In this document: piece after piece, positions 11,942-30,136 of the stretch
How positions within the stretch are numbered: the first letter of the stretch is position 1
How the letters are laid out: each line of letters starts with the position of its first letter
Virus record (IMG/VR): IMGVR_UViG_2934051868_000003
Span: 29,878-93,877 of that record
DNA: 64,000 nucleotides
Source of the DNA: a virus
Lineage: Duplodnaviria > Caudoviricetes
Strand: one strand, 5' to 3'
Program-made: the position numbers and the translations under genes
The notes under the pieces: generated by a model
The model's input: only the letters and a program-made list of their open reading frames with translations
The model's database searches: none
What the model was told of the DNA's origin: nothing

Positions 11942-12203
11942 GGTCGTCCACCTCCGCCCCGTGCTCCTCAGCGCCGATGACAACACGCTTGGCGAACAGG
12001 GTGAGGGTGACAAGCACCGCGTCGTGCTCCCGAAGCTCCAGCTCGTGCACTGTCACAGGAGAGTTCGCTGGTGCCAGCAGCCGTTGTCCGTTGATGCGGA
12101 TTTCGTTCGGGACGACGACGTCACCGGCCGCGTGGTCCGGGTTGGTGGGCTGCGGACGCCGCTCGATGATCTCGATGACGGCGCCGACGGGGCGGTCAGC
12201 CAC
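11934..12203 (-). CDS. Hypothetical beta-rich protein
   Basis: Coupled ORF between major tail and chaperone genes. Confidence 0.65.
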   Translation of the reverse strand: MADRPVGAVIEIIERRPQPTNPDHAAGDVVVPNEIRINGQRLLAPANSPVTVHELELREHDAVLVTLTLFAKRVVIGAEEHGAEVDDRG

Positions 12204-12540
12204 GGCCGGTCACCTCCGGATCGGTCGGCGGCTCCCAGCCGGGGATGCCAGCACGCGGATCAGTCGGCGCCGGCTCCCACACCCGAACCTTGCCCCGACC
12301 AGCAGGCTTGGCCGCCGGCTGCCGCTGCGGACCCGACGCGGCCTCGCCCACCTGCACCGACGACACACCCACCGTGAACGTGAGATGCGCGCCATGCTCC
12401 GTAGACGCGACCTCATAGGCGTACACGGGCGCCGCGACGTCCACGCCGTCCAGCGACACCGAGTAGCCCGTTACCGGGCCGTCCGGCTCGCGTAGCTCCG
12501 TGATGACGGCGGACACGCCCACCGCTGCGTTCTCTGACAT
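12196..12540 (-). CDS. Hypothetical beta-rich protein
   Basis: RBS GGAG before ATG 12540. Confidence 0.65.
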   Translation of the reverse strand: MSENAAVGVSAVITELREPDGPVTGYSVSLDGVDVAAPVYAYEVASTEHGAHLTFTVGVSSVQVGEAASGPQRQPAAKPAGRGKVRVWEPAPTDPRAGIPGWEPPTDPEVTGRG

Positions 12541-12569
12541 GCGGGGTTCTCCAATACACGCATGCGGGG

Positions 12570-12626
12570 TTAAAAAGGAAGAAGGCGCTGGCGGGTAAAC
12601 CCCGCATGGAAAGACCCGCCAGCGCC
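12570..12626 (-). terminator. Intrinsic terminator after the major tail gene
   Basis: 13-bp stem GGCGCTGGCGGGT/ACCCGCCAGCGCC then TTCTTCCTTTTT on minus strand. Confidence 0.75.
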
Positions 12627-12639
12627 AGCACAAGGGGCG

Positions 12640-13200
12640 CTAGGCGGCCATGGAGCTGTCCAGGTAGTACCGGTAGCAGGCGACCGAGTTTCCGTCGAGG
12701 TACGCCGACAGGGTCCATTGGTACACGGTGATGTCTTCGGCGTTCCACACCACGTCACCGCGCTCCGTGACCTCGCCCTGCGGCACCACGATCCGCTGCG
12801 CGCGGGTGCCATCCGTGCCGTGCAGCACCCACGACCGGATGTCGGTCGTGGGTGGCTTCTCCGCCACAGAGGCGCCCTCCGACGTCTGCGTGATCGTGGA
12901 GCCCGGGAACTGGACCCCGAGCGTCAGCAGGCTCGTCTCGGCGGCGGCGAACGTGAAAGTCTTGGTGTACTGGCCCGGGATGCGACGCACCAGCGCCGCC
13001 CCCTGCCAGGCGAAGATGTCCGTCCGGTCCTGGCTCGTGGCCTCCGAGATGCCATCGGAGGTGACCGTGCCGATGTCGAAGAAGTCCGCTGAAAGGCCGG
13101 CAGAGGCCGTGGTGGGCAGCGTGACGGACGTGTCTCCCGCCGCCGTCACAGCGACTAGTCCGTTGGTGTACGCACGGATGAGGCTGACGTTGAGCGCCAT
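12640..13200 (-). CDS. Major tail (tube) protein
   Basis: G...DG...I.AWQ motif typical of actinophage tube proteins; RBS AAAGGA; synteny. Confidence 0.85.
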   Translation of the reverse strand: MALNVSLIRAYTNGLVAVTAAGDTSVTLPTTASAGLSADFFDIGTVTSDGISEATSQDRTDIFAWQGAALVRRIPGQYTKTFTFAAAETSLLTLGVQFPGSTITQTSEGASVAEKPPTTDIRSWVLHGTDGTRAQRIVVPQGEVTERGDVVWNAEDITVYQWTLSAYLDGNSVACYRYYLDSSMAA

Positions 13201-13264
13201 CTCAAATCCTTTCGAGGGCAGCGGTTGACGCCCGGCGGTCAGCCGGGTTGACCTGGGGAAATGG

Positions 13265-13293
13265 TGGAGTGGGCGCTACCAATCTGGTAGCAT
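13265..13293 (+). promoter_or_regulatory. Promoter TGGAGT-N17-TAGCAT overlapped by inverted repeat GCTACCA-ATC-TGGTAGC (13275-13291)
   Basis: Read directly; -10 lies 7 nt before GTG 13301 (leaderless). Confidence 0.7.
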
Positions 13294-13300
13294 CTTTGTT

Positions 13301-13459
13301 GTGGTGCGAGGGGAGCCGAAGGCGTCGCTGAACCTGCGCGTATCGCCTGAGCTGAAGCGTCAGATCGAGGAGTACGCCGCGCGTGCCGGCCTCTCGATCA
13401 CCGCTGCGGCAGTAGTGCTCCTCGCCGAAGGTCTCCGCGCGGAACGACGCAAGCGATGA
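13301..13459 (+). CDS. Ribbon-helix-helix (Arc/HicB-C-like) repressor, 52 aa, absent from the ORF track
   Basis: MVRGEPKASLNLRVSPELKRQIEEYAARAGLSITAAAVVLLAEGLRAERRKR; stop overlaps tnpB start (ATGA). Confidence 0.85.
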   Translation: MVRGEPKASLNLRVSPELKRQIEEYAARAGLSITAAAVVLLAEGLRAERRKR

Positions 13460-14724
13460 GGCGAACCTTCAAGTTCCTGATCCGGCCGACCGCCCGCCAG
13501 GAATCCGCGCTCGCCGCGATGCTCGCGGATCACTGCGACCTCTACAACGCGGCTCTCGAAGAGCGGCGCGCAGCCTGGATCAAGAGGCGAGTCAACGTCA
13601 GCTGCACCGCCCAGCAGGCTCAGCTTCCCGCCATCCGGGCCGCCGACCCCGACCAGGCAAGGTGGGGGTTCAGCTCGCAGCAGGCCACAGTAAGGCGCGT
13701 CTACGAGACTTACGCCGCGTTCTTCCGACGCGCCAAGGCAGGGAACAAAGCCGGGCTGCCGCGCTTCAAGGCTCGCGCCCGCTTCAACACCGTCACATGG
13801 CCCAGTAACCGCGACGGCTGCCGGTGGGACTCCACGCCCGGCGGTCAGACGCGCGTCTATTTGCAGGGCGTGGGGCACGTAAGGGTCCACGCCCATCGGC
13901 AAGTTCAAGGGCGGGTCAAGACGCTGACTGTCACCCGGCGACGCGGCCGGTGGTTCCTGGCGTTGTCGTGCGATGAGGTGCCCGCCGCGCCGCTGCCTTC
14001 GACAGGCCGAAGCGTGGGCATTGACTTAGGCGTGGCAAGCTTGGTCACCACTTCAGCCGGATACATGGTCGGCAACCCGCGATTTGAACGGACGCTCGGC
14101 CCCGACCTTGCCGCGGCGCAGGCTGCCATTGCGAGATGCCAACGTGGCTCTCGGCGTCGGGAGACGTGGGCCAGAAAGGCCGCTGCCCTGTGGGCCAAAG
14201 CTGCGGCCCAGCGGGCGGACCATCACCACAAGCTCGCGCTTCGGCTTATCCGCGACCACGACCTGATCGTTCACGAGGATCTTCGCCCCGAGAACATGGC
14301 ACGACGGTCCAAGTCGTCGTTCCGGCGTGCGCGGTCTGGTCTGAGTCGATCTATATATGACGCCGGGTGGGGTGGCTTCCTGCGCATGTTGCGCGACAAG
14401 GCTGAGAGTGCCGGTCGTGCTGTAGTCGCAGTGAACGCCGCCTACACGTCTCGCCGGTGCGGCTCATGTGGGCACAGCAGCGCCGAGAACCGGCCTTCCC
14501 AGGCGGTGTTCCGCTGCGTGTCTTGCGGTCATGAAGCGCACGCTGATGTGAATGCTGCGATCAACATTCTCAGGGCCGGGCTGGTCCTGCGCGACGCCGT
14601 TCCGGCGATGCGGAAAGCCGCGCCAGCGGCGGAGTCACATGAAGATGTCATTCAGCCGGCGAGCCGATACGCGTTGACTTTCAGCTCGGCGTTGTCCACG
14701 TCGAAGTTGAGCGTGGTGCCGTAA
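13456..14724 (+). CDS. tnpB: TnpB RNA-guided endonuclease, catalytic triad intact
   Basis: HTH start (FKFLIRP..LYNAAL), RuvC GIDLG / HEDL / HADVNAA, zinc finger CGSC..CVSC. Confidence 0.95.
   Translation: MRRTFKFLIRPTARQESALAAMLADHCDLYNAALEERRAAWIKRRVNVSCTAQQAQLPAIRAADPDQARWGFSSQQATVRRVYETYAAFFRRAKAGNKAGLPRFKARARFNTVTWPSNRDGCRWDSTPGGQTRVYLQGVGHVRVHAHRQVQGRVKTLTVTRRRGRWFLALSCDEVPAAPLPSTGRSVGIDLGVASLVTTSAGYMVGNPRFERTLGPDLAAAQAAIARCQRGSRRRETWARKAAALWAKAAAQRADHHHKLALRLIRDHDLIVHEDLRPENMARRSKSSFRRARSGLSRSIYDAGWGGFLRMLRDKAESAGRAVVAVNAAYTSRRCGSCGHSSAENRPSQAVFRCVSCGHEAHADVNAAINILRAGLVLRDAVPAMRKAAPAAESHEDVIQPASRYALTFSSALSTSKLSVVP
14520..14655 (+). ncRNA. Putative TnpB omegaRNA; scaffold ends GGAGTCAC (14638), guide starts 14639; 5' end approximate
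   Basis: CTCAGGGCCGGGCTGG...AAGCC...GGAGTCAC resembles actinobacterial IS605 right ends; omegaRNAs overlap the tnpB 3' end. Confidence 0.65.
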
Positions 14725-14990
14725 ATCGTCGTCTCGAACGGGCCGATGTAGCGGGACGCCCCGGCCGCGATCGAGTAGGTGCGTGGGGTGACGGTCTGGC
14801 CGTCTACGTTGCGGGCGAACCTAACGGTCAGCGTCCGCGCGGTCGAAGAGGCATTCGCGTTTCTTACCAAAAGGCAGGTGCGTCCGTCGTTGGGCATCTG
14901 AAACCCATTCACGGCGTCTCCGTTGACCTCGGCGGTCGGCGCGATGCCCGCCTTGGTGATGTCGGTGACGGCAAGACTGGTGCGGGGCAT
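14652..14990 (-). CDS. Small virion structural protein (beta-rich)
   Basis: RBS GGAGG; NDGR..L.V.N and IGPF...YG motifs; between tail terminator and major tail genes. Confidence 0.7.
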   Translation of the reverse strand: MPRTSLAVTDITKAGIAPTAEVNGDAVNGFQMPNDGRTCLLVRNANASSTARTLTVRFARNVDGQTVTPRTYSIAAGASRYIGPFETTIYGTTLNFDVDNAELKVNAYRLAG

Positions 14991-15067
14991 GAGCAACCTC
15001 CGGGGGCATGACGAACTGGCCGATCCCGAAGGCCGGGCCGGCGGAACAGGGAATGAGGAGGAGAGGG

Positions 15068-15460
15068 CTAGCTTTCGAGCAGCCCGTGGAACCACACCCG
15101 GTACGACGCCGAGCGTTTGAACACCTTCGGATCAGGCGACCAGAACGGCAGCGTCTCGACCCGCACCGCCGACACCGTCAACCCCGACGCCCAGGTGTGG
15201 CCGGGCAGCCGAAGTTGTAGTTCGGCGCGCACCCGGTTGGCGATGTTGCCGGCGTTGTCGGCGCGGGCGGCGTACACGTCCACGTCGAGGATGACGGCGT
15301 CGAGGGTGAGCGCGACTTCGCTACCGGGTCCGGATTGGATGTGAACGAGTGGGGCGGTGAAGTCCCACGGTTGGGGGAGGATCGGGTCGGCCCAGCATTT
15401 GCGTTCGATCCGCGGCTGGAGCCAGCCGGTGACGAGCGCTTCGGGGGTGTTGTCGGTCAT
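15068..15460 (-). CDS. Tail terminator protein
   Basis: Size, DVDVYA motif, synteny. Confidence 0.7.
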   Translation of the reverse strand: MTDNTPEALVTGWLQPRIERKCWADPILPQPWDFTAPLVHIQSGPGSEVALTLDAVILDVDVYAARADNAGNIANRVRAELQLRLPGHTWASGLTVSAVRVETLPFWSPDPKVFKRSASYRVWFHGLLES

Positions 15461-15843
15461 CGGTCGCTCGCGGCGCGGAGGGCGTTGCGGAGGATGTGCA
15501 GGGCGGGGGTGCCGGGATGCTGGACGCGTTTGACGGGGTGGCGGGCGCCGCGCCAGTGCAGTGCCTGCGCGTTCTTAGCCTCGATGACGTGAGGTCGGGT
15601 GCCCTTTTCGAGGATCAGCGAGTGCGGCGCCTTGGCGACCACCCGCACGGTGGCGGTGCGCGCCCCGGTGACCCGTTCGCGGCCGATCTTCGACCGGTAT
15701 TCGTAGGAGCGGACCGGGGCGGTGACCTTCGCCCGGGTGACCACCCGGTCGGCGCGGCCTTCCAGATGCTCGTACATGAAGTCGGCGTGCATCATGCGGG
15801 TGATGCCCGCCTGATCAGCCTTGAACGTCACCTTCACTGACAC
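15457..15843 (-). CDS. HK97 gp10-like neck protein
   Basis: APV.S...E.GT.PH...V.HPGT...LR.AL motifs. Confidence 0.75.
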   Translation of the reverse strand: MSVKVTFKADQAGITRMMHADFMYEHLEGRADRVVTRAKVTAPVRSYEYRSKIGRERVTGARTATVRVVAKAPHSLILEKGTRPHVIEAKNAQALHWRGARHPVKRVQHPGTPALHILRNALRAASDR

Positions 15844-15859
15844 CGGAGCCTCCTCTCGG

Positions 15860-16348
15860 CTAGAGGAGCGCGTCGCCCCAGCTCGGCGCCGAAGGGAACG
15901 ACCACAGCGGCATCAGGTTGTCGCCGCCCGACCCGCCGCCGCCGTTCGCTTCATCGTTCGACACGACCAGCCCGGCCAGCAGCGATTCCATGCGACGTTC
16001 CATGTCGTTCGCCCGCTGCAACGACTGGTCGTCGTGCGGCCACGACCGCTCCACCGCTGCCGCCGCGTACAGGGTCGCGACGAGGCGGGCAGTGTCGTGG
16101 CTGGTCGTGTGCAGCGGGGTGACCCGGGATATCACCCAGGCGATCCCGTCGGCGATGAGCCGGTCCACCGCCCACCCGGTCGGGCGGGTGTCGACGTCGA
16201 ACGTCAGGTAGTAGACGTCCGCCGAACCGGTCGTGGTCGACGGCTGCTGTTTCAGGGTGCGGTGCGGCACGTAATCGGCGACGTTCTCCCGCAGCGGCGC
16301 CCACTCCGGTAGCCCACCGGGGCTGCCCGCACCAGCCGGAATCGGCAT
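15860..16348 (-). CDS. Head-to-tail adaptor
   Basis: Helical 162 aa; synteny. Confidence 0.6.
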   Translation of the reverse strand: MPIPAGAGSPGGLPEWAPLRENVADYVPHRTLKQQPSTTTGSADVYYLTFDVDTRPTGWAVDRLIADGIAWVISRVTPLHTTSHDTARLVATLYAAAAVERSWPHDDQSLQRANDMERRMESLLAGLVVSNDEANGGGGSGGDNLMPLWSFPSAPSWGDALL

Positions 16349-28084: not shown

Positions 28085-30136
28085 CTACAGCGGCTCGCTC
28101 GCCCAGTCCACGTCCCGAACCTCCGGCAACTCCACCCGGTCAACCGCTGGTTGGGGATGCGCCTGCACCGGCGGCGGTGCCCACTGCGTCGCCGACGCGA
28201 ACACAGCCAACGCCAGCGCCGTCACCGACCCGTCGAATCGGCTACTCGGAAACGCCAGGAACTCCGACGTCCACTGCTCCCGCCAATCCGCCTCACCTGG
28301 CAGCCACACGCGTCCCGCAGAGACGGCGGACGACGCCGGCAACGCCCGGCCCAGCCGGTCCGGGTCGATGTCCAGCGGTGTCACCACCACACCAGGAAGC
28401 GACAAACCCGCCTTGATGAGCGACGCGAACTGCTGTCGGGTCACGTAGGTGGCGTCCACAGCCCAACCGCGCGCCGCGTCGGCGACCACCTGAAGTGGGT
28501 TACTGTCACCGACTCGGCAGCGTTCACGGGCCAGCAGCAGCAGGTGCCCTTCAAGGGTGCGACCCCACACGGCAGCCACAGTGAAGTCGGCGCCGCCGTC
28601 CTCGCCCGCCGCGATATGGGCGGTGGCAAACAGCCACATCGACGCGACAGGCCACGTCCGGCCGCCGTACGCCACACCGCGGCTACCGTCGTCGGCTCGC
28701 GCCCACGACCAGTACCGCCAGTACATGCGGCCGAACAGATCCCCGCCAGCCGGAGCGACGGCGGTCAGCATGAGCGCGTCAGCGCGGTCCGGGGACGGCA
28801 TGCCCCGCTTCCGCATCTCATCCTTCGACTCGATCTGAATCTGACCGCGCGACGTGAACCGATACTTGATCGCACCCAACTGCGCGGCCACACCCTCATC
28901 GGCGGGGTCCAAGTCGATGTCGCCGTCCTCGAACCGGCTGCGCAACGCCCAAAACCATTCGGAGCGGGCGTTGAGGAACCGTTCCCGATCCGACGCGGCG
29001 GCGCCGGCCTGCATGTCCAGCACCCCGTAGCCAAGCTCCGTCAACCGGTCCACAACCCCGGCGCCGACGCCGACACCGTCCACGCGGATCTCATCCGCGC
29101 CCGTCTCCCGTTTCGCGTCGATAACTCGGCCGGTGGTTTCGGTGGTGGCCTGTTTCGTGTACTCGCCGACCAGCCTTGCGACCGGGCCGTTGCGGACGTA
29201 GATGACGGTGCGGTCGGAACCGAACCGGGCCACGTCCACACCCAGGATGCCGCGGCCGGCCCGTTCGAGGCTGCGCTGTTGGGCGGCCTCAATCCAGGCG
29301 GGCGGGATGAGAACGTCTTCGCCGATCTCCGGGAACTCGCCGAGCACCTTCGACACGTAGCGGGGGGAGTCCTCACCCCAGCGGCGTTTCTTGTCCTCCA
29401 CCCACTCGGGGTCGAGCATCAGCGGACGCAGATCGTCGGGAAACGGCTCGTCGGTGAAGTTGGGGGTGTCAAACGCTGAGATGCCGATGACGTTCCAACC
29501 CGAGCCGGGCTTGCACACGTCACCGAACTCGGTGTTCGGATCGTCAGGATTCGCGACGGCAAGGATCCGGCAGTCCTTGTTCGTCGTGATCGCTTCAACA
29601 GCCGTCCACAGCTGTCGAGGCACGCCGCATGCTTCGTCGATGATCACGAGAACGTATCGGCGGTGGATGCCCTGAAAGCCGTGGACATCGGTGTCAGCGG
29701 GCTTGCGGCCCCAGCCGATGAGCGTGCCATCCGCAAGCTGCCACTGGTCGGACAGCAGGACTCGGCCTGGTAGAGGGTTGCCCCTGCCGGCTGCCTTCTT
29801 CGCGGCACCCCTGATCTCTTCCCAGAGGATGCCGTGTATCTGCTGATAGGTCGGCGCTGTGCTGACGACAAACGCCTCACCGGGCGGGTGAACATCCAGC
29901 CAGTACGAGGCAATGCGGGAAGCGAGGAACGACTTCCCGGAGTTGTGGCAACTGCGGACGGCAGTCCGCCTGTTGTTGACGACCGATAGGGCGATTTGCT
30001 GCTGCTTGCTCCAGAGATGTTCGCCCAGCCGGTCGGCGACCCAGCCGGCGGGATCACCAGAGAATGGGTGCGGGGCCGGCGGTTCGAATGCTCTGGCGGC
30101 CAACTCGAACGGTGACACGACAGCGGTCACCGTCAC
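28085..30136 (-). CDS. terL: Terminase large subunit with an extra C-terminal nuclease-like domain
   Basis: Walker A SCHNSGKS, Walker B IIDEA, GVDVARFGSD, SPDRADA. Confidence 0.93.
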   Translation of the reverse strand: MTVTAVVSPFELAARAFEPPAPHPFSGDPAGWVADRLGEHLWSKQQQIALSVVNNRRTAVRSCHNSGKSFLASRIASYWLDVHPPGEAFVVSTAPTYQQIHGILWEEIRGAAKKAAGRGNPLPGRVLLSDQWQLADGTLIGWGRKPADTDVHGFQGIHRRYVLVIIDEACGVPRQLWTAVEAITTNKDCRILAVANPDDPNTEFGDVCKPGSGWNVIGISAFDTPNFTDEPFPDDLRPLMLDPEWVEDKKRRWGEDSPRYVSKVLGEFPEIGEDVLIPPAWIEAAQQRSLERAGRGILGVDVARFGSDRTVIYVRNGPVARLVGEYTKQATTETTGRVIDAKRETGADEIRVDGVGVGAGVVDRLTELGYGVLDMQAGAAASDRERFLNARSEWFWALRSRFEDGDIDLDPADEGVAAQLGAIKYRFTSRGQIQIESKDEMRKRGMPSPDRADALMLTAVAPAGGDLFGRMYWRYWSWARADDGSRGVAYGGRTWPVASMWLFATAHIAAGEDGGADFTVAAVWGRTLEGHLLLLARERCRVGDSNPLQVVADAARGWAVDATYVTRQQFASLIKAGLSLPGVVVTPLDIDPDRLGRALPASSAVSAGRVWLPGEADWREQWTSEFLAFPSSRFDGSVTALALAVFASATQWAPPPVQAHPQPAVDRVELPEVRDVDWASEPL

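Follow-up and report, generated by a model that had tools for sequence, protein, structure and literature searches.

What would a TnpB nuclease cut once its transposase is gone, when it lies among the structural genes of a prophage and carries a guide whose first letters are foreign to the place where it sits? This question is raised by a cassette of 1.4 kilobases (kb), encoding an Arc-like ribbon-helix-helix (RHH) protein and TnpB, on the plus strand of a stretch of tailed-phage DNA of 64,000 nucleotides (nt), hereafter the window; the window covers positions 29,878 to 93,877 of the IMG/VR record IMGVR_UViG_2934051868_000003 and is part of a provirus record of 93,877 bases. The cassette, which is single-copy in that record, is wedged between a gene of 112 amino acids (aa) and the major tail gene, in a late structural operon of high GC content that lies on the minus strand and also includes a tail-completion gene and a tail terminator; the carrier is an actinobacterial prophage of the Micromonospora type. 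A preliminary description of the locus had proposed that the guide is directed at the tail gene of rival phages. Comparison with related genomes leaves us in very little doubt that, as far as alignments can tell, the correspondence between the guide and the tail gene is real.

The guide and the tail genes of relatives

The features on which this correspondence rests are the following.

14639 to 14654, plus strand: guide of about 16 nt, ATGAAGATGTCATTCA, the flank starting right after GTCAC according to the empty-site comparison
13006 to 13025, plus strand: resident copy of the target site; CCAG at 13006 to 13009, resembling a target-adjacent motif (TAM), then GCGAAGATGTCCGTCC; the minus strand encodes T-D-I-F-A-W
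12640 to 13200, minus strand: major tail (tube) gene, 186 aa (Pfam Phage_TTP_17, E 4.8e-10; PHROG 117 major tail protein, E 6.1e-27)
13456 to 14724, plus strand: tnpB (Pfam OrfB_IS605, PF01385, and Cas12f1-like_TNB, PF07282, both above cut-off)

The start of the guide is set at 14639 because the empty sites of a related element place it after GTCAC. Its first 13 nt, ATGAAGATGTCAT (14639 to 14651), are foreign to the site and resemble the tail gene, and the remainder is the stop region of the 112-aa gene. The comparison drew on 31 DNA alleles of the site in the tail gene (L002, L037 to L047, L063 to L080 and L082; L081 lacks the site), and in every one of them the site, read on the strand identical to the guide, is immediately preceded by CCA-N (CCAG in 16, CCAC in 12 and CCAA in 3). 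The preliminary description had predicted that alleles encoding N-D-I-F-(I/M)-W should exist, and such a motif is indeed carried by 7 of the 120 tail homologs listed; at the DNA level, several alleles match the guide better than the resident copy does. The contiguous match from guide position 1 has these lengths.

14 nt: L072 (encoding QDTNDIFMWQ in frame; CCAC, then ATGAAGATGTCATT)
11 nt: L002, L080, L082, L040 and L046
10 nt: L076
0 nt: the window itself

Null tests were run against the same 225 kb of loci. Among 5000 shuffled guides of equal composition, one reached a match of 14 nt and 96 reached 11 nt; GC-rich 20-mers taken from the window reached 14 nt in 48 of 4855 cases, and the guides of nine other elements gave at most 10 nt. 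The site adjoins the third most conserved 14-nt patch of the tail gene, the target itself ranking 82nd of 562. Two scans of viral contigs for an exact TAM followed by a guide-like target returned 8 and 8 stretches, 11 of them distinct, with none in a tail homolog detectable by tblastn; all of these stretches lie on contigs of lower GC content (0.37 to 0.54). Three of the contigs (L093, L094 and L095, from unrelated phages with a GC content of 0.40 to 0.51) encode NDIF(I/M)W at the matches, and in L095 the site is preceded by CCAT; the motif may be widespread in tail-tube-like proteins beyond the reach of tblastn.

The resident allele stands apart from these relatives. Positions 13010 to 13024 read GCGAAGATGTCCGTC, preceded by CCAG and encoding T-D-I-F-A-W-Q, as had been described, and the site pairs with the guide at positions 3 to 11 and 14 to 15, with mismatches at 1, 2, 12 and 13. 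This likeness at 11 of 15 positions, with which the preliminary description began, is present and not significant by itself: in a scan of 6 kb to either side, with a filter of 12/16 matches or an 8-nt seed, it failed, while another site at 15837 passed with 12/16. No other site in the window comes within three mismatches of the 16-mer, save one with a 3-nt seed. The allele reads CCAG followed by GCGAAGATGTCC; the conserved Trp is preceded by the codon GCC (Ala) in place of ATC or ATG, which abolishes pairing at guide positions 1 and 2, and relatives carry ATGAAG where the resident has GCGAAG. The claim that the resident copy is altered in the seed thus stands, and the alteration is rare, since Ala before Trp occurs in 6 of the 120 listed homologs (the protein of the window, P0122 and P0123 as its two closest relatives, and three more) and in none of the 31 DNA alleles.

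How such differences would act can be judged from ISDra2, whose native guide is given as about 16 nt (PMC8612924). According to PMC10097598, ISDra2 TnpB requires about 12 TAM-proximal base pairs, and double mismatches at positions 1 to 12 abolish cleavage, while those at positions 13 to 16 are tolerated. By these rules, the resident allele is predicted to be safe, and an allele of the L072 type would be cleavable if its TAM is accepted; L082 and L040, in which position 12 is the only mismatch within the seed, would be borderline.

The enzyme itself is in keeping with a nuclease. TnpB aligns over its full length with the ISDra2 TnpB structures in PDB (E 2.9e-35), and all the RuvC acidic residues that had been noted are present (D190, E274 and D364), together with two CxxC pairs; the RuvC-III motif is HADVNAA, with Asp 364 kept. 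The nearest TnpB outside this record is 60% identical, and the nearest relatives are actinobacterial. It had also been noted that no transposase lies nearby, and this extends to the whole 93,877-base provirus record, which was the scope of the search (the host chromosome lies outside it): neither a Y1 transposase (PF01797) nor a serine recombinase (PF00239) is found there.

Element ends and the origin of the 13 nucleotides

The remaining parts of the cassette and its neighbours are these.

13230 to 13248, strand not assigned: terminator-like native phage hairpin, GCCCGGCGGTCAGCCGGGT, which includes the left copy of TCAGCCGG and is kept in cassette-free relatives
13249 to 13300, plus strand: truncated left end with promoter (GGGGAAAT foot, palindrome at 13275 to 13291, -10 element TAGCAT)
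13301 to 13459, plus strand: Arc-like RHH gene, 52 aa (PHROG Arc-like repressor matches; weak Pfam HicB and NikA matches below cut-off)
14409 to 14638, plus strand: omegaRNA scaffold region, ending in GGAGTCAC (alignment of 11 elements, RNAalifold)
14652 to 14990, minus strand: 112-aa structural-module gene, PHROG 38030 of unknown function, whose stop carries the right copy of TCAGCCGG
15068 to 15460, minus strand: tail terminator gene, the next one upstream in the late operon (PHROG 123 tail terminator, E 1.3e-7)

The strings named in the preliminary description are found where it had placed them: TCAGCCGG at 13239 to 13246 and 14652 to 14659, GGAGTCAC at 14631 to 14638, and ATGAAGATGTCAT at 14639 to 14651. 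Its assumption that GGAGTCAC marks the right end was sound, as this string ends ten related elements (L003, L005, L006, L035 and the RHH-carrying viral elements L049 to L054; L036 has GAAGTCAC) and is fixed by empty sites. The flanks diverge right after GGAGTCAC in each distinct element, L052 and L053 sharing a right flank. Both L035 and L036 carry tnpA; L035 is a TnpA-TnpB element whose TnpB is 57% identical to that of the window. Its empty site in three related genomes reads GCGCCAT followed by TACAGCAAGCAC (GCGCCAT-TACAGC), and the occupied site reads GCGCCAT-CAGATTT at the left and GGAGTCAC followed by TACAGCAAGCAC at the right. Because these empty sites place the junction after CCAT, the family is read as having CCAT as its TAM, a left end that opens with CAG, and a right end in GGAGTCAC that is followed by the flank, with the guide beginning right after GTCAC. 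The CCAT-CAG junction is kept in six elements (L035, L036, L049, L052, L053 and L054), and the sequences to the left of it are unrelated to one another. TCAG, which the conserved CCATCAG might have suggested as the family TAM, is ruled out by the same empty sites, which put the cut after CCAT. The CCAN-like TAM of the preliminary description stands insofar as it agrees with CCAT at three of four positions; the canonical CCAT is absent from the sampled alleles.

Over the 11 elements, RNAalifold gives a scaffold of 41 pairs, of which 16 show compensatory changes, including the stem just before GGAGTCAC. The fold of 14500 to 14654 is no more stable than its shuffles (z -0.09), a comparison that is uninformative because the DNA is GC-rich; a scan of 12000 to 16000 against Rfam returned nothing relevant, and no family matched the omegaRNA scaffold. 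Homology of tnpB ends at about 14590, its homologs stopping in GCCTGAGAA or GCTTAGCGA, and the frame of the window tnpB continues through the guide because the usual stop is lost. The readthrough part (14639 to 14724) runs 73 nt antisense into the 112-aa gene, giving about 45 extra residues. At the left, the window lacks the CCAT-CAG junction, the GGGGAC segment and the full hairpin that are seen in L049, L052, L053, L054, L035 and L036, and its left junction is without the family TAM; the promoter TGGTAGCAT is kept in the window and in all six RHH-type relatives. Judged from this comparison, the cassette is no clean insertion, and its left end and part of its scaffold are eroded. Because the transposase and a functional left end are lost, the cassette is fixed in place.

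The stop of the RHH gene overlaps the start of tnpB (ATGA), and RHH proteins 69 to 80% identical to it lie directly upstream of a TnpB in six viral loci (L049 to L054). As read from the sequence, the palindrome GCTACCA-ATC-TGGTAGC at 13275 to 13291 overlaps the -10 element TAGCAT at 13288 to 13293. In IS605 elements, Arc is described as a repressor of the transposon promoter in a bioRxiv report (10.64898/2026.09.24.754181); the RHH partner is this known Arc accessory of IS605 elements and is no new feature.

Where, then, do the 13 nt come from? In 18 cassette-free loci from genomes and metagenomes, in which the 112-aa gene adjoins the tail gene, the order is a stop codon, an intergenic region of 61 to 94 nt that opens with a pyrimidine-rich spacer, the hairpin CCCGGCG..CGCCGGG and a ribosome-binding site; neither TnpB nor RHH is found in these 18 loci. 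ATGAAGATGTCAT is absent from all 18, the best match being 9/13. In the public runs X2 and X4, contigs join 13243 to 14652 through 33 other letters, which are the rest of the hairpin and the spacer, and these close cassette-free contigs also lack ATGAAGATGTCAT. Another contig in X2 is colinear with the window over 13176 to 14963, with 104 substitutions and no gaps; therefore, a cassette-bearing variant that is about 6% diverged is present in that run, and cassette-bearing and cassette-free forms coexist there. On this evidence, the cassette and ATGAAGATGTCAT stand in place of the native spacer. The view that these 13 nt are no native flank is borne out, since ATGAAGATGTCAT is not ordinary intergenic DNA at any locus compared.

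The preliminary description had taken the 8-bp repeat TCAGCCGG at both edges for a boundary duplication, and this part did not survive. Such repeats are at chance level (at least 8 nt are shared by 377 of 1687 real segment pairs of equal geometry in the window and by 1432 of 20,000 shuffles), and a single-copy junction was not found among the cassette-free forms. A target-site duplication is rejected: both copies are native, the left one belonging to the hairpin and the right one to the stop region of the 112-aa gene, because hairpin and stop region are present in cassette-free relatives, which carry a spacer. The 13 nt end in GTCAT, one base off the true cleavage site GTCAC. The guide may have originated by aberrant right-end processing that dragged along old flank from an earlier insertion at the tail-gene site, or it may be a short templated patch laid down in repair; for either route the source allele must have had AAT for Asn, in contrast to the resident lineage, and both routes fit a selected function as well as a relic.

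The tail gene has 199 homologs at E<=1e-5, mostly of the Micromonospora type, with relatives in Micromonospora, other Micromonosporaceae genomes and soil-type metagenomes. Homologs of the 112-aa gene lie between tail terminator and tail gene in the 18 cassette-free loci, and none was found among the viral contigs searched; a blastn search of 12400 to 15400 against INPHARED phages gave no match. The hairpin upstream of the tail gene is found in the 18 cassette-free loci and in the cassette-free joint contigs. In several relatives a T-run comes after it (at the homologous positions in L072, L073, L076, L078 and L079), which suggests an attenuator or terminator ahead of the major tail gene, and the cassette lies just upstream of this hairpin (13230 to 13248) in the sense of the operon.

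Other elements of the family offer a few observations in their own right. The guides of ten elements were scanned for second matches within their own loci, and two stood out: L006, with a 12-nt seed and no TAM, and L005, with 9 nt. L006 is a TnpB element without a left end on a viral contig, and the match (L006:4232-4243 and L006:4399-4410) falls within the neighbouring 214-aa gene, 170 nt downstream and on the other strand, with CGGC rather than CCAT before it; it is perhaps another instance of a guide that resembles an adjacent gene, or else chance, with an expectation of about 0.001 to 0.005 per element over the ten scanned. In L005, a single tnpB is followed within 200 nt by three GGAGTCAC termini (L005:3021-3230), which have a partial second scaffold between them and look like nested or tandem right-end relics; the 9-nt word after the third terminus is found again at 1665, to the left of the element. 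In L050, which like L051 is a cassette without a left end, CCAT stands at the left edge, about 33 nt ahead of the -10 element, and precedes GGCCGCCCTCC, which resembles the element's own guide GGCCGCCTCCTC (L050:4416-4427). This resemblance is likely chance because the shared words are GC-rich, and a TAM with a target-like copy at this edge would also be consistent with a cassette end-joined into a break made by TnpB. L052 from 2907 and L053 from 770 are 98% identical rightwards from exactly CCAT-CAG, across the element and into 1.7 kb of its right flank, and unrelated leftwards, so that from the alignment we place a breakpoint of recombination or mosaicism precisely at the TAM.

A proposed mechanism and its alternatives

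If the cassette is expressed and active and accepts CCAG or CCAC as a TAM, we infer homing or exclusion from the following course. The RHH protein would keep the operon repressed, and TnpB and its omegaRNA would be made in the lysogen or during co-infection; the complex would then cleave the tail gene in those related phages in which the allele can pair with positions 1 to 12 of the guide, the candidate targets being CCAG, CCAC or CCAT followed by ATGAAGATGTC(A/G)TT. The carrier would be spared by its own change of Ile to Ala (ATC to GCC), which breaks pairing at positions 1 and 2. The cut could destroy the rival, amounting to exclusion, or repair from the carrier genome could copy the resistant allele together with the nearby cassette into the rival, amounting to RNA-guided intronless homing; a framework for intronless homing and localized marker exclusion is given in a review (PMC13565253). 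That the tail genes of rival phages are cut under RNA guidance, leading to exclusion or to co-conversion of the homing type, is a proposition that we hold to be evenly poised. We favour a functional role to this extent because the resident allele carries a rare change that breaks the seed, because an intact nuclease persists in an immobile and apparently old cassette, because forms with and without the cassette coexist, and because the site lies about 230 bp from the cassette, a short distance being what co-conversion needs. We speculate further, and more tentatively, that an immobilised, nuclease-active TnpB under an Arc repressor serves as an RNA-guided free-standing homing endonuclease or a weapon of superinfection exclusion, with a captured guide of 13 to 14 nt directed against a conserved tail-gene stretch of competitors and a carrier shielded by a two-base change in the seed; this fuller formulation has somewhat more chance of failing than of holding.

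A number of findings weigh against such a role, and several of them would be expected of a decaying selfish element whose guide is a relic. The canonical CCAT precedes none of the 31 alleles, and in ISDra2 the protein contacts the TAM base that adjoins the target, according to PMC10097598, which bears on whether CCAG or CCAC can serve. Only one of the 31 alleles reaches the roughly 12 base pairs that ISDra2 needs, the five 11-nt alleles missing position 12, and a full match of 16 to 20 nt to any tail allele is impossible, because past position 14 or 15 the guide is made up of the stop region of the 112-aa gene. The terminal stem of the window scaffold is shortened to GCCGC-GCCA-GCGGC, and 30 of the 41 consensus pairs are kept, the lowest number among the 11 elements; the family stop codon of tnpB is lost, the frame reading through its own guide to 14724. 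The combination of right end and guide was found in no viral contig (0 matches), leaving a single locus. The relatives from which alleles were sampled, moreover, share no more than 74% identity in the tail protein; the real rivals are closer relatives. An element that once lay in, or recombined with, the tail gene at CCA-N before ATGAAGATGTCAT, and then moved with 13 nt of its old flank by aberrant right-end cleavage or illegitimate recombination, would have no selected action; GTCAT at the end of the 13 nt, being near GTCAC, could have acted as a pseudo right end, and the truncated left end, the shortened right-end stem, the lost stop codon, the want of CCAT and of long pairing among the alleles, and a provirus without a transposase all suit it. 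We nevertheless consider this course unlikely, though with appreciable weight. It leaves unexplained why the rare resident Ala falls at exactly guide positions 1 and 2 and why TnpB is intact, with no insertions or deletions in a copy that is 6% diverged; TnpA insertion at the tail site would have needed the CCAT that no allele carries, and a move of 240 bp with exactly 13 nt of flank is an unusual event. A relic guide with an active TnpB would, besides, still hit matching alleles, and would then differ from RNA-guided cutting of rivals in selection alone.

The other explanations fare worse. An ordinary insertion of IS605 type, in which the guide is native flank and its likeness to the tail gene arose by chance, predicts ATGACATCTTCAT behind the stop codon of the 112-aa gene in some relative without the cassette; conservation is poor in the spacer that separates this gene from the tail gene, so that a lineage-specific spacer is conceivable, and the 48 of 4855 window 20-mers with 14-nt matches show that such lengths do arise. 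The close cassette-free relatives, however, carry a different spacer, the left junction has no CCAT and the left end is truncated, the 14-nt seed coincides in codon position with the partial match of the resident allele, CCA precedes the site in every allele, and a single composition-matched shuffle in 5000 does as well; we regard this account as very improbable. The cassette might instead be an addiction module resembling toxin-antitoxin (TA) systems, or some other prophage accessory, to which the tail gene and the content of the guide are irrelevant. Pairs of RHH/MazE and TnpB have been proposed as TA modules (PMC10691335; review PMC13565253), and the cassette has been retained without a transposase, but the proposed clade is archaeal with the RuvC-III Asp changed to His (PMC10691335), the Asp is kept here, Arc in IS605 acts as a promoter repressor (10.64898/2026.09.24.754181), and the match between guide and tail gene would go unexplained; this is improbable in our view. 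Domesticated TnpB repressors with retargeted guides, which exist in prophages according to the review (PMC13565253), bring to mind a TldR-like protein that binds without cutting and tunes expression of the tail gene. We give this hardly any credence: TldRs are nuclease-dead whereas the D-E-D triad of RuvC is intact here, the site lies inside a coding region and not a promoter, and the resident allele is mismatched at seed positions 1 and 2.

Comparison with known systems

TnpB is known in two modes, as a nuclease that guards its own transposon with a guide from its own flank and, in TldR, as a dead repressor with retargeted guides. TnpB, omegaRNA, Arc, intronless homing by protein endonucleases and retargeted guides in nuclease-dead TldRs are all already known; a 2026 review of OMEGA homing lists intronless homing for protein endonucleases alone (PMC13565253), and a literature search found no nuclease-competent TnpB with a guide matching a neighbouring gene of relatives. 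RNA-guided cutting of rivals, if true, would bring RNA-guided nucleases into the biology of free-standing homing endonucleases and supply an intermediate between transposon maintenance and defence or offence, as is assumed on the road from TnpB to Cas12. It would amount to a one-spacer, CRISPR-like system of phage against phage and be the first TnpB in nature for which substitutions in a target gene, and not the question whether its own transposon is present, separate self from non-self. The locus offers a cheap test system of one protein, one RNA and a small set of 20-bp targets distinguished by natural substitutions. Even if the guide is a relic, the locus still records a guide carried to a new place, which bears on how retargeting starts.

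Among known systems, the IS200/IS605 elements of the ISDra2 type and those carrying Arc share with the cassette the TnpB domains, catalytic triad and zinc-finger cysteines, an omegaRNA that overlaps the 3' end of tnpB, a conserved right terminus followed by a variable guide, and a 4-nt TAM, CCAT for this family, taken from empty sites; the upstream Arc-like RHH protein, with a palindrome over the promoter as read from the sequence, resembles the arrangement in the Arc-carrying elements. Protein and RNA are thus those of IS605, whereas insertion next to a TAM, a native-flank guide and mobility are not found: the cassette lacks TnpA, has a truncated left end and no TAM at its left junction, and the first 13 to 14 nt of its guide match a site in the neighbouring gene of related genomes. 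The distinction between self and non-self would here rest on substitutions, not on the presence or absence of the element. The TA modules proposed by Altae-Tran et al. (2023) likewise have a small RHH gene directly upstream of tnpB and no transposase; their clade, according to PMC10691335, is archaeal with Asp changed to His, whereas the cassette is actinobacterial or viral, keeps the canonical Asp and groups with Y1-associated elements. TldR resembles it as an immobilised TnpB derivative in a prophage, with a guide matching a gene other than its own insertion site; TldRs have lost their RuvC residues and bind promoters, whereas the triad is intact here and the site lies in the coding region of other phages' alleles. 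Free-standing homing endonucleases such as Seg and Mob of T4 are likewise nuclease genes between conserved phage genes, with forms that have and lack them coexisting, and their target lies in a nearby conserved gene of relatives while the carrier has a variant allele, the resistance of which is, in our case, predicted from the ISDra2 rules. These endonucleases recognize their targets through protein-DNA contacts, whereas the cassette would use an RNA guide of 12 to 16 nt together with a TAM.

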